The notes beneath the pieces were generated by a model that saw only the letters and a list, made by a program, of their open reading frames with translations, ran no database searches and had not been told where the DNA came from. The translations under genes and the position numbers were made by a program. From positions 7,181 to 71,180 of the forward strand of contig CAVZSD010000031.1 of NCBI GenBank assembly GCA_963777615.1: a stretch of 64,000 nt of DNA. Direction: 5' to 3'. This DNA is from an uncultured Bacteroidota bacterium (GTDB lineage Bacteria; Bacteroidota; Ignavibacteria; Ignavibacteriales; Ignavibacteriaceae). Shown here one piece after another: positions 3,904 through 61,964 of the stretch (position 1 is its first letter; every line of letters starts with the position of its first letter).

Positions 3904-4164
3904 CTAATTTATCCTATCCCAATTCGGAACTTCTCTTGATGGAACCTTTGCTATTATCTTTTTTACTTTCTTCTTTAAAGTGTTAACAGCCTTTTTTGAT
4001 AATCTTGATTCCAAAATAGAAACCGATTCTAATTGTGTTAACTGAGAATTTAATAAATAATTAGTTAATTGATTTATTGAAACCCCTTGATATTTGGCTT
4101 CTCTCTCAAGTCTTCTTTTTAAATCTTTTGGCAATCGTAATGTTACAACTTGTGTATCACTCAT
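3904..4164 (-). CDS. Ribbon-helix-helix (Arc/HicB-like) antitoxin
   Basis: MSDTQVVTLRLPKDLKRRLEREAKYQGVSINQLTNYLL has an RHH N-terminus. It overlaps the PIN gene stop by 4 nt. Confidence 0.7.
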   Translation of the reverse strand: MSDTQVVTLRLPKDLKRRLEREAKYQGVSINQLTNYLLNSQLTQLESVSILESRLSKKAVNTLKKKVKKIIAKVPSREVPNWDRIN

Positions 4165-4592
4165 TTTTTTACCTCTAACATTTTATATAATTCTTTCGGT
4201 GTTACTACTTTAAATCCAAAACCTTTTAATTCACCTTGCTTAAAATCTTTTATATTAGATGTAACTAAATAATCACTATTACTTGCAAATGCACATTCCA
4301 TAAAAATATTATCGTTTTCATCAGGAAGATTAGGACGTAATAAATAATATATAGAATATTTCTGAGCCAACAAGGCTAACAAATCCAGAAAATCTTCCAC
4401 TTCCTTCACGGAAAGATTTAACAGCTGAAGATTTTTTTCTCTCATCAATACATCATAATATTCAAAATATACTTGTGGAGAAACAGCTAATTTTATTTTC
4501 TCATCAATAATCATTTTAACAATTAAATGAGAAGCTCCTTTATTACTATAAAGCGCGGAGAAAATTACGTTTTTATCAACTGTTAAAATCAT
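4161..4592 (-). CDS. PIN-domain toxin
   Basis: MILTVDKNVIFSALYS..(D)..DENDNIFMECAFASNSDYLVTSNIKDF shows the PIN acidic residues. It is translationally coupled to the RHH gene. Confidence 0.75.
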   Translation of the reverse strand: MILTVDKNVIFSALYSNKGASHLIVKMIIDEKIKLAVSPQVYFEYYDVLMREKNLQLLNLSVKEVEDFLDLLALLAQKYSIYYLLRPNLPDENDNIFMECAFASNSDYLVTSNIKDFKQGELKGFGFKVVTPKELYKMLEVKK

Positions 4593-4669
4593 ATATTGTA
4601 ATGATAGCACATATACTTACAATTTTCAAGAGAGGAAATATCTAAGTGGTGATTGTAAACCTAATTAAT

Positions 4670-5036: not shown

Positions 5037-5360
5037 TCAGTTTAAAGGGATTTCCAAACCAGTTTTTATTACTTCATTAGCAATTAAATTATTTAGGTTA
5101 AAATCCTCCGGCCTGAAGGCTATAGGTTCTATACGCGTATCTATTTTCCAGGTAAGTTTGCCAAGATTTACATTATCAATAAATTTGTTTCCAGTAAATG
5201 AAGACGAAATAATAGCTAAATCTATGTCGCTCTCATTTGTAGCCTTTCCTGATGCGTAAGAACCAAATAAAAATACTTTTTCAACATTGTACTGTTTCTT
5301 TACGGCTTGCAAGTATTCTGTAATCGAGTCTGGTATTTCTAAATTTTTGCCTTCAACCAT
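5037..5360 (-). CDS. Minimal nucleotidyltransferase (MNT) antitoxin of a HEPN/MNT pair
   Basis: ..KVFLFGSYASGKATNESDIDLAII.. shows the GS-x10-DxD NTase motif. 107 aa. It overlaps the HEPN gene end. Confidence 0.8.
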   Translation of the reverse strand: MVEGKNLEIPDSITEYLQAVKKQYNVEKVFLFGSYASGKATNESDIDLAIISSSFTGNKFIDNVNLGKLTWKIDTRIEPIAFRPEDFNLNNLIANEVIKTGLEIPLN

Positions 5361-7654: not shown

Positions 7655-8845
7655 CTAACCTTTACTCTTAATATCGTCAATAATTTTTTTTGCTTCATTT
7701 TTTTTTATTCTGAATTCTTCCGCAATTTCTATTGCCAGCTCAAAATTTAGGGAGTTATCGTTTTCTGAAATATTTAAACTTAATCCCGTACCCATTTCAT
7801 TTGGATTAACATCAAAAGCTGGAGAAAGTATCCAGCCTTTTTCTGTTAAGATAAAACCATGATTTCTTAAATGATCATCTGTATTCGAAACGGTAATGTT
7901 GAATACTATTCTTTTCCATAATTCTTTCAAATCTTCCTTAATCATTGCGCCATTTTTGCTTAAGAACTCTGCTAATTCAAGGTAGCTTGCGCCTGCATGC
8001 GAATCCCTGTTATCAGTATAACCAAGCATTGTCATTGCAGATGCAAAATGAATTCTCTTTGACTTTTCTCTATCAAATCTTTTTACAAGAAATGTATGGT
8101 ACTTATTTGCAAACCGTTCAACCCTAGCTTCTGCGAGGTTCAATCCACACCTTACAGCTAAAGTATGTACAACTATTTCCCAGCCTCCAACATCTTTGCT
8201 ATCACTAACACTGGGAAATTTTGCAATCCACAAATCACCGTTCTTATCTTTTATACTGGCTTTAGGACGAGCGCCTCCGAGCGAAGAACCTGGAGCTATG
8301 AGCATATTCATCCATTTTATATGCTCTTCATTAGTTATATCATCATCTTCTTCTAATCTTAAGCTTGCCGTTTGTAATTCACTTAATGATGTTATTGGTG
8401 GTACAGCAAGTGATCCGTCTTGATTTACGAATTCTCCATTCTCGGTTAATTTAAATCTTAATCCACCCATCCTGTTCTCATCATAAACCCCCAATAAATA
8501 GTCGGATTCCATTAGTGTTTTAGCTTGCCGCCTTTCATTTCTTGCAAGTATAGCTTCTCGCTTTTTCATTAAAACCCTTCCCCAGCGATCCGGTGATGAA
8601 TCAAGAAAAATTCCGAAGTTATTTTTGTTATTATCCAAATAGTGCGGCCCTGTGAAAAGTTGCAAGTCGGGATCAATAACTTGTGCGAATTTTGTTTTCA
8701 ACCATTCATCCGAATACTCAAAAGAAAATATTTCTTTACCCCTTACAATTTCGGAATGTAATATTCCGAGTAATGCCGGGGGATCTTTAATTCCTTTCCA
8801 ATCTGCATAAACAAATATATTTTTTCTAGTATCTGCCTTTGCCAT
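7655..8845 (-). CDS. hipA: HipA-family serine/threonine kinase toxin
   Basis: 396 aa. N-terminal coupling domain ..IFVYADWKG..LGILHSE..FSFEY.. Kinase core ..GSSLGGARPKA.., ..NTDDHLRNHGF.., ..LSPAFDVNP.. Confidence 0.85.
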   Translation of the reverse strand: MAKADTRKNIFVYADWKGIKDPPALLGILHSEIVRGKEIFSFEYSDEWLKTKFAQVIDPDLQLFTGPHYLDNNKNNFGIFLDSSPDRWGRVLMKKREAILARNERRQAKTLMESDYLLGVYDENRMGGLRFKLTENGEFVNQDGSLAVPPITSLSELQTASLRLEEDDDITNEEHIKWMNMLIAPGSSLGGARPKASIKDKNGDLWIAKFPSVSDSKDVGGWEIVVHTLAVRCGLNLAEARVERFANKYHTFLVKRFDREKSKRIHFASAMTMLGYTDNRDSHAGASYLELAEFLSKNGAMIKEDLKELWKRIVFNITVSNTDDHLRNHGFILTEKGWILSPAFDVNPNEMGTGLSLNISENDNSLNFELAIEIAEEFRIKKNEAKKIIDDIKSKG

Positions 8846-8848
8846 ATT

Positions 8849-9190
8849 TTAATCCTCTGATTTTCTTTTTGGTGCTCTGTGTTTTACAGCTAATTTTGCA
8901 TCTTGTAATTTTCTACCTAAGAGATCATCATTCGCAACATTTAACAAATCATCCGCCAAGCCCAGTACAGATAAAACCTGTGTAAAGTTTCCAAGGCTTA
9001 CACCGGGATTTCCTTTTTCAATTTCATACAAAGTTCTTCTGCCAATTCCTGCCCTTTCGGCAACTTGCTGAGTACTTAATTTTCTTCTCAAACGAGCAAG
9101 TCTGAGGTTCTCTCCAAGCACTCTTACAATATTAACGGTTTTATTTTGAAACATAGTTACAGTTCCTTCATAATGAGTTTTATACTGCAC
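8849..9190 (-). CDS. hipB: XRE-family HTH antitoxin (HipB-like)
   Basis: ..LRLARLRRKLSTQQVAERAGIGRRTLYEIEKGNPGVSL.. It lies 3 nt upstream of hipA. The start could instead be the internal ATG at 9154. Confidence 0.8.
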   Translation of the reverse strand: MQYKTHYEGTVTMFQNKTVNIVRVLGENLRLARLRRKLSTQQVAERAGIGRRTLYEIEKGNPGVSLGNFTQVLSVLGLADDLLNVANDDLLGRKLQDAKLAVKHRAPKRKSED

Positions 9191-9690
9191 AAATATAGTA
9201 AGTTTTGGGCAAAATACCGCACATTATCAAACAATAAATTGAGGTGGAACAATACATTATTTTGTGTTTCTAACGAAAGGAGTAAAATACATTCCACTTA
9301 AATGAACTAAAATAAAAACCCGTTCATATCAACAGTAAAACTTTTTCATCTAAAGTTATTCAATTCCTAAATGTTTTTTTATAATTCCAAATTTGATATT
9401 GTCCTAATTTCCATAATCATTAACGAATAATTCATCCATCGACTCCGCTCAGGATGACGATTTAATTACATTAGAAATGGTAACGGAGTTGAACCATGAC
9501 TCAGTTATGCAAATTAAAACACTGCTCCAAATTTGTCTCACTGAAATGCCGTCTCTTAGAAATATTTACATTGCTGGAATAAGGACGCACGTATGCAAAA
9601 AGGCGGTATTACTTATACATTTTTTCTTTTAACATTTTGGTGTTTCTTTTCTATTTGCAGAAAAGAAAAAGCTCACCCAAATAAAATTAA

Positions 9691-9775
9691 TCGAAATTAT
9701 ACAGATGTTTTTTAAAATACTTTTTACTACATTCTGCGCGTGTTAATTTAAATTGAAATCGCCAATCGCAATTAT
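9691..9775 (+). repeat. Degenerate family-A repeat (module Y), plus orientation
   Basis: ATTATACAGATGTTTTTTAAAATACTTTTTACTACATTCT..AAATTGAAATCGCCAATCGCAATTAT aligns with 17570-17650. Confidence 0.55.
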
Positions 9776-10097
9776 ATAATTAGGATATTTGAATAAAGTC
9801 GGCACTTACGAGAATGCCTAAATTATAAAACACATTGCATTATTTGGCTTGTTGGATAATAGATTAGCGATATCATATTTTATAACAGTATTATCTTATG
9901 AGATTTTGTAAAACCCGAAATATGGTTATGCCGCTGTGCCCATATCTATGCTCTTTAGATTAATTTCTTGTGAAGTATAATTACTAGTTATAAGCTTAGT
10001 ATCAGAGTAAGTATAATCAAAATACAATAGATCTATTAGCGGCTGTTCAGTGAAAAGTCAGATGTATTTATATTAAACATTAAAAAAGGAACATATT

Positions 10098-10967
10098 ATG
10101 GTTTCAAATATTCAAAAAGAAAAAGCCGAACTGTTCTTGAAATTTCATCATGACAAAGAAATTCTGGTTCTGTTAAACTCGTGGGACATCGGAAGCTCTA
10201 AATTAATAGAAGCAAGCGGCTATAAAGCAATCGCAACAACAAGTATGGGAATAGCTGCCTCTTTAGGGTATCCTGACTGCCAGGTAATACAATTGTCGGA
10301 AATGATTGAAGCTATTACGGGAATAGTAAACGCAGTAAAAGTTCCGGTATCGGTGGATATAGAAGCCGGGTATGGAAATAATTTAAATGAAATAATTGAT
10401 TCTGTTAAAAAGATAATTGCAACAGGAATTGTTGGAATTAACATTGAAGACAGCATTGATTTAAATCCAATATTAATTGACGAGATGGAATTTTGTGAAA
10501 GAATATCAGCCATTCGTGCATTATCAGATTCACTGGGCTTTCATTTAGTAATTAATGCAAGAACGGATTCATTTTATACTTCGTCAGGTTCGCCGCAAGA
10601 AAAATTATCCGAATCAATTAAGCGCGGCAATAAATACCGGGAAGCCGGTGCCGACTGCATATTCGTACAGCCTGTATGGGAAAAAGAAACGATTTCAACA
10701 TTGGTTAAGGAAATTAATGCTCCAATAAATATTCTTTCAAACCCTACAATTGGGGCAGGATTACCCCTATCCGTTAGTGAACTGCAGGATTTAGGTGTTG
10801 CCCGTTTAAGTCTTGGTTCAAGTTTAATGAAAGCTACTTTAGCTTTAATTAAAAAAGTTGCAGACGAACTCACTGAAAAAGGTACTTACAATATTTTATT
10901 AGATACCTTAACACCGTTTCCCGAAGCTGCAAAGGCATATAAAATGGCAATAGGTTTGAACAAATGA
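10098..10967 (+). CDS. Isocitrate lyase / PEP mutase superfamily protein
   Basis: ..LNSWDIGSSKLIEASGYKAIATTSMGIAASLGYPD..VSVDIEAGYG..GINIEDS.. It lacks the bona fide PEP-mutase EDK..NS motif. Confidence 0.8.
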   Translation: MVSNIQKEKAELFLKFHHDKEILVLLNSWDIGSSKLIEASGYKAIATTSMGIAASLGYPDCQVIQLSEMIEAITGIVNAVKVPVSVDIEAGYGNNLNEIIDSVKKIIATGIVGINIEDSIDLNPILIDEMEFCERISAIRALSDSLGFHLVINARTDSFYTSSGSPQEKLSESIKRGNKYREAGADCIFVQPVWEKETISTLVKEINAPINILSNPTIGAGLPLSVSELQDLGVARLSLGSSLMKATLALIKKVADELTEKGTYNILLDTLTPFPEAAKAYKMAIGLNK

Positions 10968-11326: not shown

Positions 11327-12130
11327 ATGATTCTTAAACCAACTTTCCCAACAAAATTGCATCAAAAAACTGCTGAATTAGTTAGAGATTATTTTCTGAC
11401 AATACCAAATGTGGATACTATTTTGATTGTAAATTCTTGTGCCCGCGGCCAAGCAATTCCAGAAAGCGATCTTGACGTTGCTATTTTAGTTAAGTCAAGC
11501 ACTACTAAATTGGAAATAAAAGAAATTGAAATTAATTGGGAAAATTATTGTAGTAATCAACCAGAAATTTTAGAATATAAAAAATTAAATCGTTTTACTC
11601 ATTTACACTTAGATATCATTGATGGAATATATACGCCAACAATATTAGAAGTTGGAGCAGAATCAGACAATTTTGAAATTGAAATAGGAAATCAAATTTG
11701 TTACTCTGCGCCGATGAGTAATATCGGTTCGTATTTTGAAGAACTAAAAAATAAATGGCTGCCATATTATAATGAAGAATTAAGATTGGAAAGATTAGAT
11801 ATGATGCGAAGTGCTTGTGAATATGATTTAGAACATATTCCATATTTTATAAGAAGGGGTTTACATTTTCAAGCATTGGACATACTCTTTAAAGCTTTTC
11901 AAGAATATCTACAAGCACTTTTTATTGCTAATAGGATTTATCCAATTGCGTATAACAAATGGATAAAAGAACAAGTTATAAATTGGCTGAATAAACCAGA
12001 AGTGTATTCAAAATTTGCTTCTATTCTTTCAGTTAGTAATATTGAAAGTAATGAGATAAATGATAAAGCAAAAATGCTCTATGAGCTTTTAAATAATTTG
12101 TCAAATGAATATTTGACAAAAAACAACTAA
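11327..12130 (+). CDS. Nucleotidyltransferase-domain protein with helical C-terminal domain
   Basis: ..ILIVNSCARGQAIPESDLDVAILV.. (G-x-DxD NTase motif), then a helical tail ..WLPYYNEELRLERL.. Confidence 0.7.
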   Translation: MILKPTFPTKLHQKTAELVRDYFLTIPNVDTILIVNSCARGQAIPESDLDVAILVKSSTTKLEIKEIEINWENYCSNQPEILEYKKLNRFTHLHLDIIDGIYTPTILEVGAESDNFEIEIGNQICYSAPMSNIGSYFEELKNKWLPYYNEELRLERLDMMRSACEYDLEHIPYFIRRGLHFQALDILFKAFQEYLQALFIANRIYPIAYNKWIKEQVINWLNKPEVYSKFASILSVSNIESNEINDKAKMLYELLNNLSNEYLTKNN

Positions 12131-12339
12131 CAAGCATTCAGCCGAACATCTTTGTAATAGAACTGTGGCGAAGCTGTTTTCAAAGAGAAGTATGTGCTGT
12201 TCCTATGTAAAGTGTAATTAAAGGTTAACACTGTATTTCGTAAAATATTGAATAGAGATTTGCTGCTGCACGTATATTTATTTTCTTTCGGTTATTTTGT
12301 GTGAGTATAAGTATAAATTAAATAGATAAAAAAAATATT

Positions 12340-13125
12340 ATGGAAAAACATCATCAAGAACCTATAGATAAGTTTTTAAATATTTACAAAAAAGACCAAT
12401 CAATTTTGGCCGTGCTTTTAGCTGGTTCAATTGCTCATGGATTTTCAAAACCAGATTCTGACATAGACATTTGTTTGGTTGTAGATTCAGAGGAATTTAA
12501 TAGACGAAAAGCTGATAATAAATTAGCTTTTAGTTTGTGGGATTTTTGTGAGTATGAAGGTGGATATATTGATTGTAAAGTTGTGGACTTAAAATTTTTA
12601 GAAAAGATATCTGTACATGGGAGTGATCCGGCAAGATACGCTTTTATGGATAATAAAATTCTTTTTTCCAGAATAAACAATTTGAATGATGTATTAAAAA
12701 ATATTTCGAGATATCCGGTCAAGGAAATTGAAGAACGCAGGAGAAGATTTGCATCTCAATTACTTGCCTGGAAATGGTACTATAGTGAAGCTGTAAAAAA
12801 AGAGAATAAATATTTAATTTTTCTTTCATTACAGAAAATAGTTTTATTCTCTAGTAGAATAGTTCTTAATGAAAACAAATTATTTTTTCCGTATCACAAA
12901 TGGATGTTAAAAGTTGTTGAAAAAACAGATAACAAGCCTTCGGAATTGATTGCGAAAATAAATTCATTGTTTGAGGATCATAACCTTAAAAAAGTAAATG
13001 AATTTTGTGAAGTAATTTTGGAATTTATAAACTACAATGAGAAGAGTGTAGACTGGCCAAATTATTTCCTAAAAGATAGTGAACAAAATTGGGTTAACCA
13101 TGAACCGCCAATTGATGACATATAA
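12340..13125 (+). CDS. Nucleotidyltransferase-domain protein (KNTase/ANT-like architecture)
   Basis: ..LLAGSIAHGFSKPDSDIDICLVV.. plus a helical C-terminal domain. 261 aa. Confidence 0.7.
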   Translation: MEKHHQEPIDKFLNIYKKDQSILAVLLAGSIAHGFSKPDSDIDICLVVDSEEFNRRKADNKLAFSLWDFCEYEGGYIDCKVVDLKFLEKISVHGSDPARYAFMDNKILFSRINNLNDVLKNISRYPVKEIEERRRRFASQLLAWKWYYSEAVKKENKYLIFLSLQKIVLFSSRIVLNENKLFFPYHKWMLKVVEKTDNKPSELIAKINSLFEDHNLKKVNEFCEVILEFINYNEKSVDWPNYFLKDSEQNWVNHEPPIDDI

Positions 13126-15362: not shown

Positions 15363-16408
15363 ATGAAAACAAAAGTATTTTTGGGATTTCTTTTTCTCTC
15401 ATCATTATTGATAGCTCAGCCAAACTTAACAATAGACTCAATTGTTGTTAAAACTTCACACGATACAATTTATGTTTGGGACTACAACGCCTGGGAACAA
15501 TGTGCATTTCAACTTGATTATGCAGTTGAAGTAAGTGATTCGGTTATTACAATCACCCAAATAGATACTGCTGAAGATGCTACAACTTGTTATGGTTTTC
15601 ATGATTTTGTTGTACCAGTAATAAATTTAAATGAAGGAATTATCGAATTGATATTTACAGAGATTGCCTCTATGAAGATGTTAAATTTATTAAATCATTT
15701 CGGTATGAATACCGTCGTCCCGGTTGGGAAGAGAATATTGTCTTATCTCCCGATAGTATTTTTTTATCCGGCAATTATTTACAAGACTCATGTAATATTA
15801 TTAATAATTCAGATCAGAGTGTTTATTTGGATTCGATTTATAATAAATCTCCCGCATCATTTTATTATAACATTAAAAGGGACAGCGAGTATATAATCTA
15901 TTATTTCAGAATATATCATTATGAACCAGGTGATTCAATCCACGTACTTCTAAATCCAAAAGATACTTTAACATTCTTTATAGCTGGTGTTGATGTATGC
16001 CCGGTTTGCAAAAAACAAACAGACGGATTTCTAAAGGATACACTCACCTTTGTATTTTCTAATGATTCAAACCAAACAACTAAAAAGCAGCTTTTATTAG
16101 ATAGTGACATTTCTTTAGGTATTGAAGATTATAAACCAAATGTAAGCTCATTTTACTTATCTCAGAATTATCCCAATCCGTTTAATCCAGGCACAACAAT
16201 AAAATATTCAATTCCAAAATCATGCTTTGTAACATTGAAAATTTATGATTTGCTTGGTAAAGAAATTATGACTTTAGTTAATGAAGAAAAAACAACTGGA
16301 AATTATGAGATAAATTTTGATGGTAAAAATCTTTCCAGCGGTGTTTATTTTTATAGAATACAAGCCGGGAGTTTTTCTGACGCAAAGAAATTTATTTTGC
16401 TAAGATAA
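15363..16408 (+). pseudogene. Secreted protein with T9SS C-terminal sorting domain, frameshifted
   Basis: Signal peptide MKTKVFLGFLFLSSLLIAQ. The C-terminus ..LSQNYPNPFNPGTTIKYSIP..YFYRIQAGSFSDAKKFILLR is in the second ORF (15827..16408). The frames switch at ~15640-15830. Confidence 0.65.
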
Positions 16409-16829: not shown

Positions 16830-17009
16830 ATGACAACTAAAGAAAAAGTAAAAAAAGAAATTGATAAATTACCTGATGAGACAATAGAAAAGGTATATAA
16901 ATATATTGCTACTTTAAGAGCAAAGACTGTACAAAAAAAGAAGATTCATACATTTAATCTTAAAGGACAGCTCGATAATGTAAAGGTTCGAGAAAGAGCG
17001 TATGAATAA
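16830..17009 (+). CDS. Small antitoxin (VapB-like position)
   Basis: 59-aa ORF that is not in the supplied track: MTTKEKVKKEIDKLPDETIEKVYKYIATLRAK.. It overlaps the vapC ATG by 8 nt (ATGAATAA). Confidence 0.55.
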   Translation: MTTKEKVKKEIDKLPDETIEKVYKYIATLRAKTVQKKKIHTFNLKGQLDNVKVRERAYE

Positions 17010-17412
17010 ATTATTGATAGATACGAATATTCTAATTTATTCAATAGATGAAGACTCAAAATATTTTAATAAATCTCAAAACTTATTTTCAGAACATTTC
17101 GAATTATACACAACATCAAAAAACTTATCGGAATTTCTCTCTGTTGTAACAAGGCTTCCTAAAAATTCATTATCATTAGACGATGCCTTACTTGTAGTTG
17201 AAGATTTTATCAGTGTAATGACAATTCTATATCCGGATAAAGAATCTTTTTTGATATTTCAAAGTCTATTGCGAAAGTATAAACCAACCGGATTAAAAAT
17301 ACATGACTTTGAAATATTGAGTATAGGTTTGGCAAATAACATAAATACAGTGGCTACACTTAATGAAAAAGATTTTAAGGAAGTTAAGGAAATAAAATTA
17401 CAATATATTTAA
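17002..17412 (+). CDS. vapC: PIN-domain toxin VapC
   Basis: MNKLLIDTNILIYSIDEDS..LYTTSKNLSEFLSV..HDFEILSIGLANNINTVATLNEKDF shows the PIN D..E..D..D pattern. Confidence 0.8.
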   Translation: MNKLLIDTNILIYSIDEDSKYFNKSQNLFSEHFELYTTSKNLSEFLSVVTRLPKNSLSLDDALLVVEDFISVMTILYPDKESFLIFQSLLRKYKPTGLKIHDFEILSIGLANNINTVATLNEKDFKEVKEIKLQYI

Positions 17413-17721: not shown

Positions 17722-17961
17722 ATGAGTTCAAAAAGCTTATTATCTAATGAACAACAATTAATATTTTATAATGAATATCACAAATTTCTATCAAATGTTA
17801 GATATAGTAGTGAAAAGAATCATCTACACGATTTTTTTAAAAAATTAAGAAGAGAAAACAAAGATTTCAAAAAATACACTGATAAAGAACTATCGAATAA
17901 AATAATAGCTTCAAGGAGACTTGAAGGTCTAAAAAGAATGGCCAAACTTAAGCAAAGTTAA
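17722..17961 (+). CDS. Hypothetical basic 79-aa protein, possibly the N-terminal part or leader of the next gene
   Basis: ORF only. Its last codons (ATG 17938, MAKLKQS*) are one frameshift away from ..VKNYISPYNLDFINKAHQSALLAVEIYNKP of the downstream gene. Confidence 0.3.
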   Translation: MSSKSLLSNEQQLIFYNEYHKFLSNVRYSSEKNHLHDFFKKLRRENKDFKKYTDKELSNKIIASRRLEGLKRMAKLKQS

Positions 17962-18016
17962 AAATTATATATCACCCTATAATCTTGATTTTATAAATAA
18001 AGCCCACCAATCAGCG

Positions 18017-18984
18017 TTGTTGGCTGTTGAAATTTATAATAAACCTCTCGCTAACTACAGATCAGAGGGATTTATTGTTATGATGATGATCGCATGGAAC
18101 GCAATTTTTCATGCAGTTTTACTAAAAAACGGATTTAAAATAAAATATAAAGAGAAAGGAAAAGACAATTATTTAGACCTAAGAAAATGCATCAATAAAT
18201 ATACAGGTAAGCTGAAAAAGGAAATTAAGGCTAATTTGGAGTTATTAATTGAAATAAGAGATCAAATAGTTCATAGAGAAAATCCGATAATAGATGATAG
18301 GCTCTTTGGTTATTGCCAATCGTGTCTATTAAATTTTGAAAATGTCCTGTGGAAAACTTTGGCGAAAACTATCAATTGCCTAATACACTTGCGTATTCAC
18401 TTCAATTCTCCCAAAAACATAATGAAAATCAAATAGAATCAATAAAAAAATATAGAAATAGATATAGTTACAAAATCTTAGATTTTATACAAGATTATGA
18501 AAACAAACTTTACAATATTGATCCCGAAGTTTATAAAAGTCAAAGTTACTGTTTTAGAATTTATTTGATTCCTAAAATTGTAAAGGAAAACAAAGCTGAG
18601 GCGGCAGTAGAATATATAAAGTACGATGTATATGACTCTAATGTTGCTGCCGAAATAGATAAGGCCATTTTGGTAATTAAAGAAAACAGAGTTTCCGGGG
18701 ATTATTACAAGGCTGGTGATGTTTGTAAAATAGTTATGGAACGATTAAAAATTATTAAAGGACCAAATTGGAAATTTACCGCGAGTTCACATCACGCAAG
18801 ATCTGCAAAGTATTTTAAAATACGTGAAGGATATAAGACGAACAACCCAGAAAAAACTAAAAAAGAATATTGTTTTTATGATCCAACTTTCAAACAATAT
18901 ATTTATACAAAACAATGGATAGATTTTTTATCAAATCAACTAAAAGATTATAAAACATATAAAGCTATATTAAAAACGAAATAA
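18017..18984 (+). pseudogene. Helical protein with Rx4H (HEPN-type) motif, DUF3644-like; frameshifted at ~18345 and probably at the 5' end
   Basis: ..ALLAVEIYNKPLANYRSEGFIVMMMIAWNAIFHAVLL.. and EIRDQIVHRE (R at 18257-18259, H at 18272-18274). ORFs 18017..18436 and 18349..18984 join at ..LLNFENVL/ENFGENYQLP.. The DUF3644 assignment is from memory. Confidence 0.5.
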
Positions 18985-19184
18985 CCTGTTAGACCATAAT
19001 TCCGAGCAGATTACTTTTACGTGTTCGATGTTTTTTAAGTATTTATATTTGTCATTCCGTATTTAGCTTTTTGTTAAAAGTTGTAATACCATGAAAGATT
19101 TTTTAATTATAGAAATTATTATTACTAAATTCTGCTTTATATTTATAAGCTTTGGCAAAAACCGTTTTATAGAAATCATTAATC

Positions 19185-20671
19185 ATGGACATATATAAGA
19201 TTCTCAAATTTGGATATTTTCCAAAGGAATTACCACCGGCATTCAATACAAAAAGTTTTGCTGATAAATTTTATAATATTGACGAAGAATGGTGTTCCAT
19301 TGGAAAATCGAGAATAAATTATATAGAGAAAGCAATTTTTGTCGCTTTAACATTCCAAAAGTAGGATTTTTGCGACGTTTATTGGGAATACCAAATCCTA
19401 TGCATTATGGGGAAATAGTGAAAATAATAAGTGATTATTGGCCAGAACTAAAAACGCATTTTACAAAATCAAATTTGTCCTTCTCAAAACCAATTGATGA
19501 TGTTCAAAATAACGATCCTTAACAAACGAACATACTTTTTTAAGTTTTAAATATTCGTGTATTGAACAATCTTTTGCTATGCTTTATGAATTAAAAACCG
19601 ATATTTCTACGGAAGAACCCCTCAATATATACTCATATTATTCCATGGGCATTACATTCAAAAGAAATTTCAAAAAGCCATAGAAATGATAGCACCTTTC
19701 TAGGGAATAAAATTGATAAAACAGTCAGAAAAGCTCAATCAGGTCAAACGATTGGTATCCCAATTGGTCCCGATGCATCTCTTGTGATATCAGAAGTAAT
19801 AGGATGTTATTTTGATTATATGCTTGCTAATAAATTTTCAGATTTAAAAGGTGGTCGATTTTATGATGATTACTATCTCTATTTTAGTAGTTATTCAGAA
19901 GCAGAAGAAGTATTGAAATATTTACAATCTATTTTTGGCGAGCATTTAGTAGAAATAAATGAAGAAAAAACAGTGATAAAACAGTTCCCATTTGAATTTG
20001 AAAAAGAATGGGCAAGTCTTGTTCCAACGTTTAAAATTAGAACAACTGTAAAAGGGGCAGTTAACCGATATTAAGAATTATGTTAGTCTTTGTTTTCAAT
20101 TTGCAAAAACATATTTACGGGATTCTGTTATTAAATATGGAATTAAAAAATTTGAATCCATAAAAATTCAAAAAGATAATTGGAATATAATTGAATCACT
20201 GTTATTAAAAATGCTGATTTGTGAACCATCTATATTCCCAGAAATATTAAAAATATTTTTGTCTTATAAAGAACTTATTGACAAATCAAAATTAAAATCT
20301 TCTTTAAGCAGAGAATATTAATTCATTGTAATAAGTCACATCATTTTGAGGTTCTCTGGGCCTTATGGTTAGCAAAAAGTTTTTCCATAATATTGAACGA
20401 TAATATTATTTCTTTGGTGTTAAATTCATCTAATTATTTATCAAAAATCATATTAGCAGATTTATATTTATCTGGTTTGACAGCAAGAAGAATTTTCGTG
20501 CTGGACAGATTAAAAAGTGAACTAACCAATGAATCATTAATGGATGAACGATGGTTATTTGCATACGAAATTATAAAGAAAAATTGGGTAACTCCTCAAG
20601 ACGATGATTTTATTACTTCGAATGAATATTTTAATTTATTGCTCAAAAATGACGTTGAATTTTATAACTGA
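19185..20671 (+). pseudogene. Reverse transcriptase of the Abi/UG (defence-associated) type, five frame changes
   Basis: MDIYKILKFGYFPKELPPAFNTKSF; FNIPKVGFLRRLLGIPNPMHY; ..LKTDIS / PSIYTHIIPWALHSK; GQTIGIPIGPDASLVISEV; GRFYDDYYLYFSS (YxDD box); helical tail ..HFEVLWALWLAKSF..ERWLFAYEIIKKNW.. Shifts are near 19300, 19515, 19605, 20060 and 20315. Confidence 0.75.
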
Positions 20672-21139
20672 ATAAATCAGATAAATGCTGTAACCTTTGA
20701 AGGATCTAACGCTTATAAAATACTCCCTCATTCCAGTGAAACTATTGTAGGAATGGAATTATATTAACCTACTTAATCTGTCAGTAAAAACAGGATATTT
20801 AAGTAAACGCCAATAGAAGTAAAGAATAATATTTGCTATGCAATTAATTTTCAATTGGTCAAACGCAACTAAAAAGCAAATCTCATCCATTCCCTGATAC
20901 CCAAATAAAAATCCATGTTTTATTTTTGTGCCCAAGTTTTAAAAGCTTGGCATTACACATAAATTATTATAGCTGCTAAGCTGTAAACGAAAGGGAAGAA
21001 AAGATAAAATAAGGGAATCAATCATTAAATAACCCGGCAGTAAAAATAAAGCATTGTACCGTGACAATCTCAAAAGCCTAAATGTGGATTGAATGAATGG
21101 CTGAATGAGCAAATACATGGAAGCAATCATATTTCATCC

Positions 21140-21353
21140 GGAAGGAATGACAAAGTGAGTGGAAGGAATCACTGAGCGACTGGAAGGAATGATAAAGTAA
21201 CTGGTAGGAATCACTGAGCGACTGGAAGGAATGACAAAGTGAGTGGGAGGAATCATTGAGTGACTGGAAGGAATGACAAAGTGATAGGAGGACAGCAATG
21301 ATAAAGTGACCGGGAGGAACCATTAAGTGATAGGGAGGAAGCATAGGGAAGGG
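21140..21353. repeat. Tandem array of ten ~21-bp direct repeats (iteron-like), alternating A/B subtypes (42-bp super-period)
   Basis: GGAAGGAATGACAAAGTGAGT / GGAAGGAATCACTGAGCGACT / GGAAGGAATGATAAAGTAACT / GGTAGGAATCACTGAGCGACT / .. The units are contiguous with no spacers. Confidence 0.9.
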
Positions 21354-22758: not shown

Positions 22759-24438
22759 ATGAAAAAAATCTTACTTAGTATTGTTGGTATATTCGCTATA
22801 ATCTTTCTATTCACAAGCGAAGGTTTTAGTGATAACATTTCAAACATTCAATTCTCCCCACCTTCACCATCATCTTTGACCTTTAACCAGAATGTTGAAA
22901 TTACATTTGATTATGCTGCGGATGTAGCCGGCGGAGTAAGAATCTTTGCGCGTCCTTTTACCAGCGGATCACTGACACCAAACTATTCCGCTTCGGGTTC
23001 GCCAATTTACCCTGCCGGAAGTGGAAGCGGCAGCGGTAGTTTTACTATTACTTTAGGAGAAGTAGTTGTTGATGAGATAAGATTCCAGATGTGGGATGCA
23101 AATCAAACAACACTATTATTGGAATTTTTCCTTCCTGTTAAATATTTATATTCTGTTCACTCTATATCTAATATAAGTATAGCACCATTATCGCCGTCAT
23201 CATTAGTTTTTAATCAAGATGTAAATATCACTTTTGACTATACAACCAGCGAAGCCGGGGGAGTGAGAATCTTTGCCCGTCCGGTTACCAACAATTCACT
23301 GACACCAAACTATTCCGCTTCAGGTTCGCCGATTTACCCTGTCGGCAGTGGAAACGGCAGCGGTAATTTTTCTATAACTTCAGGTGATGTGATAGTTGAT
23401 GAGATAAGATTCCAGATGTGGGATGCAAATCAGACAACACTTTTGCTGGAATTTTTCATGCCTGTTGAATATCATTTTGCTTCTCTTTCGATATCTAACA
23501 TTCAATTATCTCCTTCTTCGCCAGCTTCACTGGCTTTTAATGCGAATGTCAACGTAACATTTGATTATGCAACAGAGGAGGCCGGCGGAGTAAGAATTTT
23601 CGCTCGTCCTATTACCAACGGATCACTGACACTGAACTATTCCGCTTCGGGTTCGCCAATTTACCCTGCCGGAAGTGGAAGCGGCAGCGGCAATTTTAAT
23701 ATTACTTCAGGAGAAGTAGTTGTTGATGAGATAAGATTCCAGATGTGGGATGCAAATCAAACAACACTTTTACTGGAATTTTTTGTACCTGTTGACTATC
23801 ATTTCTCAACTCATTCGATATCGAATATAACTCTTTTACCTCCCAGTCCGGCTTTTTTCACTTTTAATCAGAATGTTAATTTAACATTTGATTATACAAC
23901 CGATGAGTCAGCAGGAGTAAGAATCTTTGCACGTCCCATTACCGGCGGATCGCTGACACCAAGCTATTCCGCTTCAGGCTCACCGATTTACCCTGTTGGC
24001 AGTGGAAACGGCAGCGGTAATTTCACTATAACTTCAGGTGATGTGATAGTTGATGAAATAAGATTCCAGATGTGGGATGCAAATCAAACAACACTCTTGC
24101 TGGAATTTTTCATCCCTGTTGAATATCATTTTGGATTGGTAACTGATATAATCTCATCGGAGTCTCAGAATCCTAATAATTACTCACTTAGTCAAAACTA
24201 CCCGAACCCGTTTAATCCAACTACAACTATTAATTATTCACTTTCTACTAGAAATTTTGTTACTTTGAAAGTATACGATATACTTGGAAATGAACTATCA
24301 ACTTTAATTAATGAAGAAAAACCGGCAGGAAATTATGAGGTTATTTTTAAAGCTTCACTATTACCATCAGGAGTATATTTTTACAAACTGCAGGCAGGTT
24401 CTTTTATTGAAACGAGGAAGATGATATTGATTAAATAA
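22759..24438 (+). CDS. Secreted protein with four tandem 109-aa repeats and a T9SS C-terminal sorting domain
   Basis: Signal peptide. Repeats start at ISNIQFSPPSP (22837), ISNISIAPLSP (23164), ISNIQLSPSSP and ISNITLLPPSP. C-terminus ..LSQNYPNPFNPTTTINYSL..YFYKLQAGSFIETRKMILIK. Confidence 0.85.
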   Translation: MKKILLSIVGIFAIIFLFTSEGFSDNISNIQFSPPSPSSLTFNQNVEITFDYAADVAGGVRIFARPFTSGSLTPNYSASGSPIYPAGSGSGSGSFTITLGEVVVDEIRFQMWDANQTTLLLEFFLPVKYLYSVHSISNISIAPLSPSSLVFNQDVNITFDYTTSEAGGVRIFARPVTNNSLTPNYSASGSPIYPVGSGNGSGNFSITSGDVIVDEIRFQMWDANQTTLLLEFFMPVEYHFASLSISNIQLSPSSPASLAFNANVNVTFDYATEEAGGVRIFARPITNGSLTLNYSASGSPIYPAGSGSGSGNFNITSGEVVVDEIRFQMWDANQTTLLLEFFVPVDYHFSTHSISNITLLPPSPAFFTFNQNVNLTFDYTTDESAGVRIFARPITGGSLTPSYSASGSPIYPVGSGNGSGNFTITSGDVIVDEIRFQMWDANQTTLLLEFFIPVEYHFGLVTDIISSESQNPNNYSLSQNYPNPFNPTTTINYSLSTRNFVTLKVYDILGNELSTLINEEKPAGNYEVIFKASLLPSGVYFYKLQAGSFIETRKMILIK

Positions 24439-25574: not shown

Positions 25575-26918
25575 ATGAAAAAACTAATTATATCTTTTGT
25601 TGTTTGTGTTTGTTCAGTCGCCGCGTTTTCACAAAACATAACAAACACACTTGGTACCGGCGGGCAGTTCACAATTAATAATGGTGGATATACTTTTTTT
25701 ATGATCGACCAATCAACTGGCTATCTAACATTAAATAGTGGTGTAATATTGAAGGGTGAATATAGCTTTTTACATGACTATCAAGCGCCGGGAACGGTGG
25801 GTAATAACACCTTTTTAGGAATAAACGCCGGTAATTTTTCGATGAATGGAAGTTTTGGAGAATCAAGTTATAACACAGGCGTAGGATTTAGTTCTTTATC
25901 TTCATTGACGACAGGATATTGGAATTCAGCTTTTGGTGATTATTCGCTTAGCTCAAACACTACGGGTAGTGGTAATTCAGCAATCGGAGAGGGATCACTT
26001 TATAATAACACCACAGGCAGTCACAATACTGCAGTTGGTAATATTTCACTCAACTCGAATACGGAAGGCATCAATAATTCAGCATTCGGAAGCGAGTCTC
26101 TAATTTCAAACACCACTGGAAATGATAACACGGGGGTTGGATATCAATCGCTTTTTGCCAACACCACAGGCATAAAAAACACTGCTATTGGGAATGGTTC
26201 TTTATCACTAAATGCTGATGGTTTTTATAACACAGCTGCAGGATATCAGTCTTTAAAAAACAACACCTCGGGCGCTGGGAACACTGTTTTAGGGTATTCG
26301 GCTGGTTCCATTATTATCACCGGTACTAACCTAACGTGTTTAGGTTATAATTCACAACCTACCTCATCTAGTTCTAACAACCAAATAACTTTAGGAAACA
26401 ATGATGTCACTTCTCTTCGATGCAATGCTGCAACTATTACCAGTTTATCAGACGCAAGAGATAAGAAAAATATTAAGTATTTGGATTTAGGAATTGACTT
26501 TTTGATGAAATTAAAACCCCGACTTTACAACTGGGATAAAAGAGAATGGTATACTAATAATATATCTGACGGAAGTAAAATGAAGGAAACGCCTACAGCA
26601 GGCTTTATAGCACAGGAACTTGATTCCGTACAAACAATAGAAAAAGCAGAATGGTTAAACCTTGTTTTAAAAGATAATCCGGAAAAATGGGAAGCCACAC
26701 CGGGAAATCTTCTGCCGATTATAGTTAAAGCAATTCAGGATTTGAATCTGAAATGTGAATATTTAAAAACTGAAAACGCTATGCTAAAAAATGAAAACGA
26801 AAACCTATCTAGCGAAGTAGAATCTTTAAAATCAATTGGTGAAAAACTGGTAAAATTGGAACTTGAGATAAATGAGTTGAAGGATGCTAAATACACATCG
26901 CTTAACGAAACAAAGTAG
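25575..26918 (+). CDS. Tail-fibre-domain protein: signal peptide, NTA.G..SL..NTTG head repeats, S74-type intramolecular chaperone domain, C-terminal coiled coil
   Basis: MKKLIISFVVCVCSVAAFSQ. About 12 repeats such as NTAVGNISLNSNTEG. ..SLSDARDKKNIKYLDLGIDFLMKLKPRLYNW..TAGFIAQELDSV..LLPIIVKAIQDL (Ser at 26448-26450), then heptad-rich ..LKTENAMLKNENENL.. Confidence 0.8.
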   Translation: MKKLIISFVVCVCSVAAFSQNITNTLGTGGQFTINNGGYTFFMIDQSTGYLTLNSGVILKGEYSFLHDYQAPGTVGNNTFLGINAGNFSMNGSFGESSYNTGVGFSSLSSLTTGYWNSAFGDYSLSSNTTGSGNSAIGEGSLYNNTTGSHNTAVGNISLNSNTEGINNSAFGSESLISNTTGNDNTGVGYQSLFANTTGIKNTAIGNGSLSLNADGFYNTAAGYQSLKNNTSGAGNTVLGYSAGSIIITGTNLTCLGYNSQPTSSSSNNQITLGNNDVTSLRCNAATITSLSDARDKKNIKYLDLGIDFLMKLKPRLYNWDKREWYTNNISDGSKMKETPTAGFIAQELDSVQTIEKAEWLNLVLKDNPEKWEATPGNLLPIIVKAIQDLNLKCEYLKTENAMLKNENENLSSEVESLKSIGEKLVKLELEINELKDAKYTSLNETK

Positions 26919-26950
26919 CTGATAAAATAAATATTAAAGGAAAAATTAAA

Positions 26951-28246
26951 ATGAATAAATTGTTTTTGTATTTTGTTCTATGTCTTTACTCAGCAACTTT
27001 GTTGGGACAAAACATAACTAATACGCTTGGTACGAGTGGTTCGTTTATAATTAAAGATGGTTCTAGTACTTTTCTTACTCTTGATCAGGCAACCGGACGT
27101 GTGGATATACTTAGAAATTTGAGACTTGAAAATACAACCACTCCAGACTTAGGTGTTATATTTAAAGGCTCTCAAAGATTTATCCACACCTTCGGAGCAA
27201 ATAATACTTTCATAGGAATTAACTCCGGCAATTTTACTACGACAGGCACATATAACACTGCTATGGGGGACCAGTCCTTATTCTCCAACACTACCGGTGA
27301 GAGAAACACTGCATTAGGAATCGGTTCATTGTATGCCAACACGTCAGGTAATTATAACACAGCTATTGGCAATGGTTCTTTATCTTCTAACACTGTTGGT
27401 GCACAGAATACAGCTTTGGGAAATCAATCATTGAGCTCTAATACCGAAGGTGTCAATAACCTTGCATTAGGGTACCAAGCCTTATCTAATAATACTACAG
27501 GAGATAATAATGTTTCGACAGGTGCATATTCATTAAATTCTAACTCTACTGGAGGAGCAAATACTGCGGTAGGAGAATATTCATTGTTATATAATAACGG
27601 AGATATAAACACAGCTATTGGAAATTATAGTGGATCTACCATTACAGTAGGTGGAAATTTAACATGCATTGGTTATAATGCTCAGCCAACATCAGGCGAC
27701 GTACACAATCAAATTACGCTTGGTAATGGAGACATAACTTCGCTCCGCTGTAATGTTCAATCCATTACTTCTCTTTCCGATGCAAGAGATAAAAAAAATA
27801 TTAAGGATTTGGATTTAGGAATTGACTTTTTAATGAAAATAAAACCCCGACTTTACAACTGGGATAAAAGAGAATGGTATGCTAATAATAAATCTGACGG
27901 AAGTAAAATGAAGGAAACGCCTACAGCAGGGTTTATAGCGCAGGAACTTGATTCCGTACAAACAATAGAAAATGCAGAATGGTTAAACCTTGTTTTAAAA
28001 GATAATCCGGAGAAATGGGAAGCTACAATAGGAAACCTTCTGCCAATAATAGTTAAAGCAATCCAGGATTTGAAGAAAGAAAATAATGAGTTACAAGTTG
28101 TTAATAACAAATTAAAAGCATCCAATACTGAGTTAACAGGTAGATTAAATAAATTTGAGGAAATGCAAAATATTTTAGCAGCAGAAATTGAAAAGATTAA
28201 AACTACCAATAATGAATCTACAAAAGTAAGCTTAGGTGAGAAATGA
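26951..28246 (+). CDS. Tail-fibre-domain protein, paralogue of 25575..26918
   Basis: Same architecture. ..SLSDARDKKNIKDLDLGIDFLMKIKPRLYNW.. (Ser at 27776-27778). The DNA of 27776-28074 is about 94% identical to 26448-26746. Confidence 0.8.
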   Translation: MNKLFLYFVLCLYSATLLGQNITNTLGTSGSFIIKDGSSTFLTLDQATGRVDILRNLRLENTTTPDLGVIFKGSQRFIHTFGANNTFIGINSGNFTTTGTYNTAMGDQSLFSNTTGERNTALGIGSLYANTSGNYNTAIGNGSLSSNTVGAQNTALGNQSLSSNTEGVNNLALGYQALSNNTTGDNNVSTGAYSLNSNSTGGANTAVGEYSLLYNNGDINTAIGNYSGSTITVGGNLTCIGYNAQPTSGDVHNQITLGNGDITSLRCNVQSITSLSDARDKKNIKDLDLGIDFLMKIKPRLYNWDKREWYANNKSDGSKMKETPTAGFIAQELDSVQTIENAEWLNLVLKDNPEKWEATIGNLLPIIVKAIQDLKKENNELQVVNNKLKASNTELTGRLNKFEEMQNILAAEIEKIKTTNNESTKVSLGEK

Positions 28247-33214: not shown

Positions 33215-33896
33215 ATGACTACTAATGAACGAATTGCAACTTCACCAAGAAAAATTGCAATGGCGGCGGGAGTGCTATACCTGCTCACCTTTGTCTCAAT
33301 CCCGACCCTCGCTCTATACAGTTCGATACACGATCCTAACTACATTGTCGGCTCTGGGCCGGATACTTCAGTAATTATCGGCGGTATCCTGGAGATTATC
33401 GTGGCTCTCGCCGGCATCGGCACCGCTGTCGTGCTCTTCCCGGTACTCAAGAAGCAAAACGAAAGTTTCGCTTTAGGCCTCGTCGCCGCCCGAATTCTGG
33501 AATCCAGCACCATCTTTGTCGGCGTGGCGTTCATTTTATCTATAGTAACTTTGCGGCAGGCCGGAGCTGGAGCGGATGCTTTAATCACCAGCCATGCGCT
33601 TGCCGCTCTTGTATGACCGCATCTTCCTTCTCGGGCAAAGTTTTATGCCGGCAGTATGCGATCTGCTGCTGGGATTACTGCTGTACAAGTCGCGCCTGGT
33701 GCCCCGAGCCCTTGCTTTGATCGGAATTATCGGATCGCCTATACTCGTTATTGGTTACATTGCCTTGCTGTTCGGTCTTATTGGACGGATTTCCCCCTTG
33801 GCTGCTCTGTCTGCAATTCCGGTTGCGTTATTTGAGTTTTCGCTGGGTGTTTGGTTAATTGTTAAAGGATTCAATCCTTCTGCAATTAAATCATAA
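33215..33896 (+). pseudogene. Membrane protein (DUF4386-like), one frameshift (~33600); about 50% GC
   Basis: ORFs 33215..33616 and 33594..33896 join at ..ITSHALAAL/YDRIFLLGQSF.. Multiple TM helices. A sampled 60-nt stretch (33361-33420) is 53% GC, versus about 25-30% in the neighbours. Confidence 0.6.
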
Positions 33897-60975: not shown

Positions 60976-61964
60976 ATGAAATCAAAACAAATATTATTTT
61001 CTTTTTTTGTTGTTTCTTTAATTATCCTGGTTGGAGCGTTTACGATAAATTCTCAATCAGAGAAAGACAAAACAAATCAACTTCTACCAAAAAATAATCC
61101 TCTCAATTTTCTTGTCATAAGCGATTGGGGCAGAGACGGAATTAATGACACGAATAAAAAGACGCCCGGCCAGCTGAAAGTTGCAAAGCAATTAGGAATT
61201 ACAGCAAAAGAAATTAATACCTCATTTGTTATTACCTGCGGCGATAACTTTCATGGCAAAGGTGTTTCAAATGTTACTGATCCTCTCTGGAAGGTAAATT
61301 TTGAAAATGTTTATACCGACAAAGCATTAATGATTCCATGGTATATTACTCTTGGAAATCATGACAATGAAGGGAATGTTGAGGCTGAGCTTGAGTATGC
61401 AAAAACGAGCATGAGATGGACTGAACCGGCAAGATATTATTCATTCACAAAAAAGCTTTCTGATTCAAGTACGGCTTTGTTTGTTGTATTAGATTCTTCG
61501 CCATTCATTCAAGAATACCAAAACCAAAAAAAAGACGGGCATCATGTTAAAGGCCAGGATACTGCTTTGCAGATTCATTGGTGTGACAGCGTCCTAAGCT
61601 CATCAAATGCGAAATGGAAATTTGTTTTCTTCCATCATCCAGCTTATTCCAGCTTCTTCAAAACATGGCAGCACAAAAGAAATTCAGGATAACTTTTGTT
61701 CCTCTATTTGAAAAATATCATGTAGCCGCTTGTTTCTCAGGTCATGATCATGACTTGCAGCATTCGCTTCCAGCGAATTCAACAGTCAATTATTTTGGGG
61801 TCGGCGGAGGTTCCGATACAAGAACTGCAGGGCATGCAGATTTTACAAAATACAGTGTCTCTTCGCTTGGATTTGGTGTTGTGTCTGTTGATGACAAAAC
61901 TATGAAATTTAATTTTGTAAATGACAAAGGTGAGCAGCTATATTCATACGAAATTCATAAATAA
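60976..61964 (+). pseudogene. Purple acid phosphatase (ACP5-like) metallophosphoesterase, two frame changes (~61650-61690)
   Basis: ..FLVISDWGRDG..ITCGDNFH..TLGNHD..FVFFHHPAYSS / ..FVPLFEKYHVAACFSGHDHDLQH.. Confidence 0.75.

Follow-up and report, generated by a model that had tools for sequence, protein, structure and literature searches.

The reverse transcriptases (RTs) DRT6 and DRT4 have been described as single-gene systems (PMC9226505, PMC12783706, PMC13213688), and DRT6 alone defends in E. coli (PMC9226505, PMC12783706). E. coli DRT4 and, as reported more briefly, Sphingopyxis DRT6 are anti-phage hexamers with protein-primed, untemplated synthesis of single-stranded DNA (ssDNA) (PMC12783706). 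In the case of DRT4, host ExoI/SbcB degrades the ssDNA, the ORF55 protein of phage T5 protects its 3' end, and the build-up kills the cell (PMC12783706). Anantharaman et al. (PMC3710099) placed the DUF3644 proteins in the HEPN superfamily, under the name EC042_2821 family. One of them, HEC-08, provides phage defence that is lost on mutation of the HEPN histidine (H128) (10.1101/2024.01.29.577857), and plasmid RP4 is expelled by Ishtar proteins, whose N-terminal HEPN domain is of the DUF4145 or the DUF3644 type (10.64898/2026.07.06.735840). Associations between RTs and HEPN proteins are known as well, namely AbiA-large, UG22 with a HEPN-like neighbour, UG19 and type IX retrons (PMC9226505). Here, we analyzed a stretch of 64,000 nucleotides (the window) from an uncultured Bacteroidota bacterium of the family Ignavibacteriaceae (assembly GCA_963777615.1, contig CAVZSD010000031.1, positions 7,181–71,180), in which a DUF3644-like and then an RT-like coding sequence are located on the + strand at window positions 17722–20767.

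Three-frame translation and the open reading frame (ORF) listing showed that both coding sequences are frame-broken. The locus probably consists of two neighbouring defence genes that are independent of each other, belong to known single-gene kinds and are both non-functional as encoded: gene A (17722–18984) for a DUF3644-family HEPN protein and gene B (19185–20767) for a class 1 UG/Abi RT. The family matches were far beyond chance, with E = 1e-167 and 7e-157 for the PADLOC Drt4 and Drt6 models and E = 1.3e-47 for the Pfam DUF3644 model. Each gene is a fresh, decayed representative of an already described single-gene defence family; the finding is an ordinary one, and the novelty of the locus is low.

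Gene A encodes a protein of 420 aa after repair of two 1-nt indels; as encoded, it is divided into three ORFs (17722–17961, 18017–18436 and 18349–18984). An earlier reading of the DNA, made by a model from the sequence alone and called here the sequence-only reading, had proposed an upstream product of about 320 aa at 18017–18984. The start of this product, ALLAVEIYNKPLANYRSEGF, was indeed found at 18014–18073, but the product is not one ORF and needs a frame change at 18348. A basic 79-aa ORF, which had been described as preceding the HEPN-like gene one frameshift away from being continuous with it, does lie one frameshift away; it is the genuine N-terminus of the 420-aa protein, and the frames join where 1 nt is inserted, at about 17931, and not at the stop codon. 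This N-terminal extension of about 80 aa (17722–17931, + strand) aligns to residues 1–76 of the homologues P0001/P0002, is predicted to be helical with a predicted local distance difference test (pLDDT) value of about 90, and is specific to the 420-aa subfamily, being carried only by the homologues P0001–P0038. The homologues of gene A (417–431 aa, up to 74% identity) span 100% of the repaired protein.

The name DUF3644, which the sequence-only reading had suggested, was borne out by the Pfam search. Model PF12358 matched the repaired protein with 162 bits (cut-off 27.6) over positions 2–182 of 183, which places the DUF3644/HEPN domain at 17990–18507 (+ strand, repaired residues 90–262). No Pfam match other than PF12358 was found for the protein at E ≤ 1. 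PDC-S19, a candidate single-gene system in PADLOC, matched with E = 9e-88 and 293 bits (model positions 11–343 of 353). The query for the Pfam, PADLOC and homologue searches joined the frames at the stop codon and not at 17931, which affects about 8 residues outside the domain. The HEPN catalytic signature R-x4-H is located at 18233–18274 on the + strand, with N171 at 18233–18235, R179 at 18257–18259 (AGA) and H184 at 18272–18274 (CAT), the latter two within EIRDQIVHRE (18251–18280). All three residues were invariant both among 37 and among 44 aligned homologues, the most distant of them at about 30% identity. The motif had been correctly interpreted as a HEPN signature.

The four-helix HEPN core lies within 17933–18349. 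An AlphaFold model of this segment of the window (pLDDT 87, predicted template modelling score 0.81) was compared with the PDB using Foldseek, and the 16 best matches were all HEPN toxins, among them HepT/MntA-HepT, SO_3166 and 8xdj/8xeh/8yuf, which agrees with the HEPN fold that had been suggested for the upstream product. The template modelling scores of these matches were mostly 0.50–0.56, the lowest being 0.42, at a probability of 0.66–0.96; the Foldseek E-values of 0.28–1.3 are on their own not significant. The full-length model, which was that of the 74%-identical homologue P0001, gave no significant match in the PDB, and a search of PDB sequences with the DUF3644 profile returned nothing even at E ≤ 10. 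In the P0001 model, the C-terminal 150 residues consist of helices mixed with short strands, with low confidence at 290–325. The assignment of a HEPN domain to the gene A product is therefore right, though not new.

Gene B (19185–20767, + strand, 526 codons) combines RT fingers and palm with a C-terminal alpha-repeat domain. At full length it scored 557 bits with the PADLOC model Drt4 (PDLC02177) and 521 bits with Drt6 (PDLC03748), so that the PADLOC label is ambiguous, since the model labelled Drt4 outscores that of Drt6. Weaker scores were obtained with UG30 (258 bits), the UG15-derived Drt4 model (240 bits), UG14 (173 bits), AbiK (168 bits) and also AbiP2. Among PDB sequences, an MBP-fused RT with six chains (9wy8) matched residues 4–497 with 250 bits, versus 91 bits for the UG15/DRT4 chains. 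The published DRT6 construct is tagged with maltose-binding protein (MBP) and has the catalytic residues D223/D224 (PMC12783706); a cryo-EM hexamer of MBP-tagged DRT6 is also cited in 10.64898/2026.04.29.721553. From the MBP tag, the six chains and the numbering, which fits D223/D224, we infer that 9wy8 is the DRT6 structure. On the strength of model scores and sequence matches, gene B is assigned to the UG12/DRT6 type of class 1 UG/Abi RTs, and the PADLOC and PDB matches bear out the earlier assignment of the RT to the defence-associated Abi/UG type. The alpha-repeat domain, which is usual in UG12/DRT6-type RTs (PMC9226505), was assigned by full-length alignment (positions 4–478 of 511 in the PADLOC model; up to residue 497 in 9wy8). 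The homologues are 510–570 aa long, and the intact relatives in the databases are at best about 45% identical. Note that the gene B query used in the family searches was repaired by hand and departs from the DNA at three motif A residues; the 250–557-bit matches are independent of these residues.

The RT motifs were found where the sequence-only reading had placed them: MDIYKILKFGYFPKELPPAFNTKSF at 19185–19259, FNIPKVGFLRRLLGIPNPMHY at 19346–19408, LKTDIS at 19591–19608, PSIYTHIIPWALHSK at 19619–19663, GIPIGPDASLVISEV at 19754–19798 and GRFYDDYY at 19853–19876. Motif A (TDIS, 19600–19624, + strand) has its aspartate at 19600–19602 and includes one of the lesions (B3) described below. The catalytic YDD of motif C (19862–19870, + strand; FYDD at 19859–19870) is retained, and D139, D228 and D229 were invariant across the alignments of RT homologues. 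The end at 20671 that had been given for the RT proved to be a premature stop: the TGA at 20669–20671 lies within the gene, and the frame runs on to the TAA at 20765–20767. The in-frame continuation past the TGA comprises 31 codons (20672–20767, + strand), a remnant of the C-terminal tail that ends in ...GMELY, and the homologues go on for 40–60 residues past the position of the TGA.

The C-terminus of this family drew attention in its own right. A C-terminal tyrosine was observed in 75 of the 118 DRT6/UG12-like homologues, and a tyrosine within the last four residues in 108 of them. This near-universal residue sits behind a variable low-complexity tail and is kept in the window (...GMELY, 20750–20767). 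In DRT4 the priming residue is Tyr125, and in a weak alignment the corresponding position of the DRT6-like family is not a tyrosine. The C-terminal tyrosine is a candidate priming residue in the DRT6/UG12-like family, and this side observation is perhaps more useful than the locus itself.

If intact, the gene B product would, by homology, form a hexamer that continuously makes untemplated ssDNA primed from a tyrosine of its own. A host 3'-5' exonuclease would clear this ssDNA until a phage DNA-binding protein shielded its 3' end; the shielded ssDNA would then accumulate and the infected cell would die (abortive infection). The intact gene A product would, by homology, be a stand-alone, metal-independent RNase effector that is restrained until invasion, probably gated by its C-terminal domain of roughly 200 aa.

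The lesions were mapped by frameshift-aware protein-to-DNA alignment with six intact RT homologues for gene B and four references for gene A; the gene A indels were also placed by nucleotide alignment with three intact orthologues (L001, L003 and L004). All lesions are on the + strand. In gene A, lesion A1 is a 1-nt insertion of an extra A at about 17931 (17927–17933), in the A run ctAAAAAgaatgg; the base is absent from the three intact orthologues, and a +1 frameshift was found there with all four references. Lesion A2 is a 1-nt deletion at 18348 (18347–18350, cct-gtgg), which was detected as a −1 frameshift with four references and by the nucleotide alignment; the sequence-only reading had missed it. 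The five frame changes that the sequence-only reading had noticed in the RT were recovered with the intact homologues. They comprise 1-nt deletions at approximately 19308–19314 (B1; −1 frameshift with four of the five covering references, the fifth placing it at 19281) and approximately 19502–19514 (B2; five references), 1-nt insertions at about 19609–19610 in motif A (B3; +1 frameshift at 19610 with five references) and at 20050–20058 in an aaaagggg run (B4; +1 frameshift at 20052 with five of six references and at 20067 with the sixth), and a 1-nt deletion at approximately 20298–20316 (B5; −1 frameshift with six references). The premature nonsense codon TGA at 20669–20671 is lesion B6.

Gene B also deviates at conserved positions. 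The aromatic pair that follows TDIS[RKW] (alignment columns 143/144) is Y or F in 118/118 RT homologues, and the window RT has no aromatic residue there in any frame (K-N or E-E). Of 68 columns with a conservation of 95% or more, it departs from the consensus at 6, compared with a median of 0 and a maximum of 5 among the 118 homologues. Since it has six disabling lesions as well as substitutions at invariant sites, gene B is most likely a true pseudogene. The TGA and the loss of the aromatic pair need base substitutions and are therefore not explained by indel errors. Gene A differs at only 1 of 81 conserved columns, and its indels are for this reason either very recent or errors; the gene was either recently inactivated or mis-assembled.

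A collection of homologous loci was used for comparison. The DUF3644 sample consisted of 80 loci, each taken from the genome of a different species with flanks of up to 10 kb, and 7 metagenome loci of the closest relatives (1.29 Mb); the RT-family sample consisted of 80 metagenome loci (0.63 Mb). The best genome matches in the DUF3644 collection belonged to Ignavibacteria, Melioribacteraceae and Leptolinea metagenome-assembled genomes (MAGs); together with the sorting domains of the type IX secretion system encoded in the window, they point to an organism of the FCB group. A single intact ORF was found for 77 of the 80 RT genes and 84 of the 87 DUF3644 genes, and none of the exceptions had more than one in-frame stop. 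Homologous genes with one in-frame stop or a truncation lie in the RT loci L156, L162 and L163 and in the DUF3644 loci L030 and L046; L030 is from an Ignavibacteria MAG, by its name of a long-read project.

Several points weigh against the reading of two independent, non-functional genes. The shared strand and the 200-nt gap (18985–19184), which is real as had been described, are compatible with co-transcription of genes A and B. The proposed mechanisms rest on homologues at 23–45% identity. The single conserved-column deviation of gene A fits very recent inactivation and an error alike. In addition, frame splits affect no fewer than two further genes of the window, and perhaps five. These include a DUF4386 gene (33215–33896, + strand; Pfam model positions 2–118 and 127–210 are complementary) and a TonB-dependent receptor (56416–59212, + strand; a Plug part and a barrel part, 151–436, with complementary Pfam coverage). 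A RibD_C gene (1400–2052, − strand), a type IX secretion system (T9SS)-tail protein (15363–16408, + strand) and a metallophosphoesterase (60976–61964, + strand) are likely split. Given the split genes elsewhere in the window, either the assembly is prone to indels or pseudogenes are numerous in the genome.

The rival that survives best, although we regard it as unlikely, is that the organism has intact, working copies of both genes, still as two independent systems, and that the frame changes arose as indel errors during assembly, such as errors of a long-read consensus where the DNA is AT-rich and varies between strains. It would account for the likewise split DUF4386 and TonB receptor genes, with 1400–2052 and 15363–16408 as further candidates, and it agrees with the otherwise near-perfect conservation of gene A and with the location of several lesions at short homopolymers (A5 at 17929–17933, G4 at 20054–20057, C4 near 19617). 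However, the in-frame TGA and the two lost aromatic residues demand substitutions, and the window RT outdoes all 118 homologues in deviations at conserved columns. Moreover, the 3.05 kb of the locus hold seven indels, whereas the remaining 61 kb of the window hold no more than about five, a rate from which about 0.25 would be expected in the locus. This corresponds to a lesion density of about 2.3/kb at the locus versus at most about 0.08/kb elsewhere, whereas homopolymers of 4–6 nt are only 1.3–1.4 times denser in the locus than in the rest of the window, and the lesion sites are mostly not long homopolymers.

The sequence-only reading proposed a split AbiA-like system as a candidate. In such a system the RT and the separate HEPN RNase would cooperate, for example through RT-made DNA that activates the RNase. 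The genes are indeed adjacent on the same strand with a gap of only 200 nt, RT–HEPN pairings arose several times (PMC9226505), and both genes are disrupted, as could befall one functional unit. The co-occurrence of the two families was examined in the collected loci using tblastn with 7 RT and 10 DUF3644 queries and using family hidden Markov models (HMMs) against six-frame ORFs (E ≤ 0.01). With both methods, a DRT4/6-like RT was found within about 10 kb of the DUF3644 gene in 0/87 loci, and a DUF3644 gene was found in 0/80 RT loci; other conserved neighbours were not screened for. As positive controls, the HMMs recovered their own family in 87/87 DUF3644 loci and 80/80 RT loci. No RT gene stands beside the closest DUF3644 relatives: the closest intact genes (74% identity) adjoin a BNR-repeat protein or an ABC transporter, and a 55%-identical gene (P0011) adjoins unannotated 345-aa and 239-aa genes. 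Furthermore, the RT is UG12/DRT6-like and not AbiA-like, DRT6 defends alone, and the HEPN domain belongs to DUF3644 and not to the family of the AbiA C-terminal HEPN. A lack of co-occurrence in other genomes is an outcome that the sequence-only reading had itself named as refuting its proposal. Because co-occurrence was zero in 167 homologous loci, searched from either side, genes A and B are read as non-partners, and their adjacency looks coincidental; a split AbiA-like system is thus very improbable. As a side observation on the P0011 neighbourhood, same-strand genes of 345 aa and 239–242 aa without a Pfam match lie 63 nt 3' of the DUF3644 gene in four loci (L004–L007; the 345-aa gene of L004, for example, is at 9329–10366), and these genes are not present beside the 74%-identical DUF3644 relatives.

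A DRT6-type RT and a DUF3644 HEPN protein might also have been joined into a functional pair recently and in this lineage only, the lesions then being assembly errors. In such a pair, accumulated RT-made ssDNA might, for example, license the HEPN RNase. We give this possibility very little credence; if true, the pair would be a new RT–HEPN architecture independently echoing AbiA. Programmed frameshifting or phase variation at homopolymers, by which the frame changes would toggle the defence genes, has a negligible chance and is rejected because the lesions are too many and too scattered: phase variation of defence genes does occur in other bacteria and lesion A1 lies within an A5 run, but slippage at a single tract cannot reverse seven separate indels, mostly outside long repeats, together with a nonsense codon. 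Nor was a slippery site or a structure signal seen, although no search aimed at them was made.

In line with the independent-gene reading, the spacer (18985–19184, + strand, 200 nt) showed no sign of structured RNA and no stable fold (RNA fold z-score −0.26). A search of the whole window against Rfam returned no family, and a tRNA scan found none. The sigma-70 promoter and terminator scan performed no better than shuffles in the AT-rich DNA of the locus.

Both genes lie in a low-GC stretch (0.28–0.30) that spans about 11 to 21 kb of the window, and this stretch and its surroundings hold PIN, nucleotidyltransferase, HipA/HTH and VapBC genes. Toxin–antitoxin (TA) modules flank the locus, as the sequence-only reading had described. 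An intact VapBC-like pair is located upstream at 16830–17412 (+ strand) and consists of a 59-aa ORF overlapping a 136-aa PIN-domain toxin (PF01850, E = 2.9e-12); a search for the exact VapC product returned no record. Other TA-like genes encode a PIN_3 protein (4161–4610, − strand), a minimal 107-aa nucleotidyltransferase similar to MntA (5037–5360, − strand), HipA with an HTH partner (7655–9190, − strand) and two 260-aa nucleotidyltransferases with weak similarity to PADLOC PDC-S09 (11327–13125, + strand). The proposed defence-island context holds as far as the richness in TA genes is concerned, but the PADLOC matches of ten neighbouring proteins were weak or generic, and for this reason we prefer the term TA-rich variable region to defence island.

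Downstream of gene B, the array that had been called iteron-like consists of tandem 21-nt (42-nt) units, with 6.9 copies at 21140–21284 and two more at 21304–21344; the minus-strand ORF across 21140–21344 has no Pfam match. The segment 21568–22291 contains short overlapping ORFs in three frames, has a GC content of 0.40, above that of its flanks, and encodes alanine/glutamine-rich, helical-looking products for which no Pfam match was found. It may be another frame-shifted gene. At 22759–24438, a T9SS-sorted protein of 559 aa with 3.7 copies of a 327-nt (109-aa) repeat is encoded. Next to each other at 25575–28246 are encoded a 447-aa and a 431-aa protein, which each carry a Peptidase_S74 (endosialidase chaperone) domain, as in phage tail fibres; a small T9SS-tail protein follows.

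The locus can serve as a worked example that adjacency in a TA-rich or defence-rich island is not evidence of partnership, as co-occurrence was zero from both sides. The decayed DRT6-type RT is consistent with a fast turnover of costly abortive-infection genes. The mechanistic weight of the finding is small, since single-gene defence roles of both families have already been described.

A comparison with known systems places the locus as follows. In UG22, UG19-small and type IX retrons, as here, an RT gene stands beside a separately encoded HEPN-like gene, but these systems involve other RT groups and other HEPN clusters, and their pairings were recognized from recurrent co-location, of which there is none here. 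With AbiA, the locus shares the combination of an RT of class 1 UG/Abi with a HEPN RNase domain. However, the HEPN domain of AbiA is C-terminally fused, whereas that of gene A is of the DUF3644 family, is encoded by a separate gene and does not co-occur with the RT elsewhere; of the 37 PADLOC families matched by gene B, the 25 best do not include AbiA, the lowest listed match having 26 bits. E. coli DRT4 (UG15) is of the same class and domain plan as gene B, its mechanism is the best-studied stand-in for that of gene B, and the Drt4-labelled PADLOC model scores highest, but the score of gene B falls to 91 bits with the solved UG15 chains and to 240 bits with the UG15-derived model.

Gene A resembles PDC-S19, HEC-08 and Ishtar in being a single gene with a DUF3644 domain and R-x4-H located near defence or TA genes, and its modelled HEPN fold matches SO_3166, as that of HEC-08 does (10.1101/2024.01.29.577857). 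It differs from them in its two frameshifts here and in its subfamily, whose 420-aa proteins have a particular N-terminal extension of 80 aa. The C-terminal domain is zinc-ribbon-like in HEC-08 (10.1101/2024.01.29.577857) and consists of a beta-sheet and three helices in Ishtar (10.64898/2026.07.06.735840). Gene B differs from DRT6 (UG12) in its five frameshifts, its nonsense codon and the loss of the conserved aromatic pair that follows motif A. With DRT6 it shares the RT and alpha-repeat architecture, the YDD motif and the stand-alone occurrence, and the DRT6 model is the best of the Mestre-derived PADLOC models for gene B.

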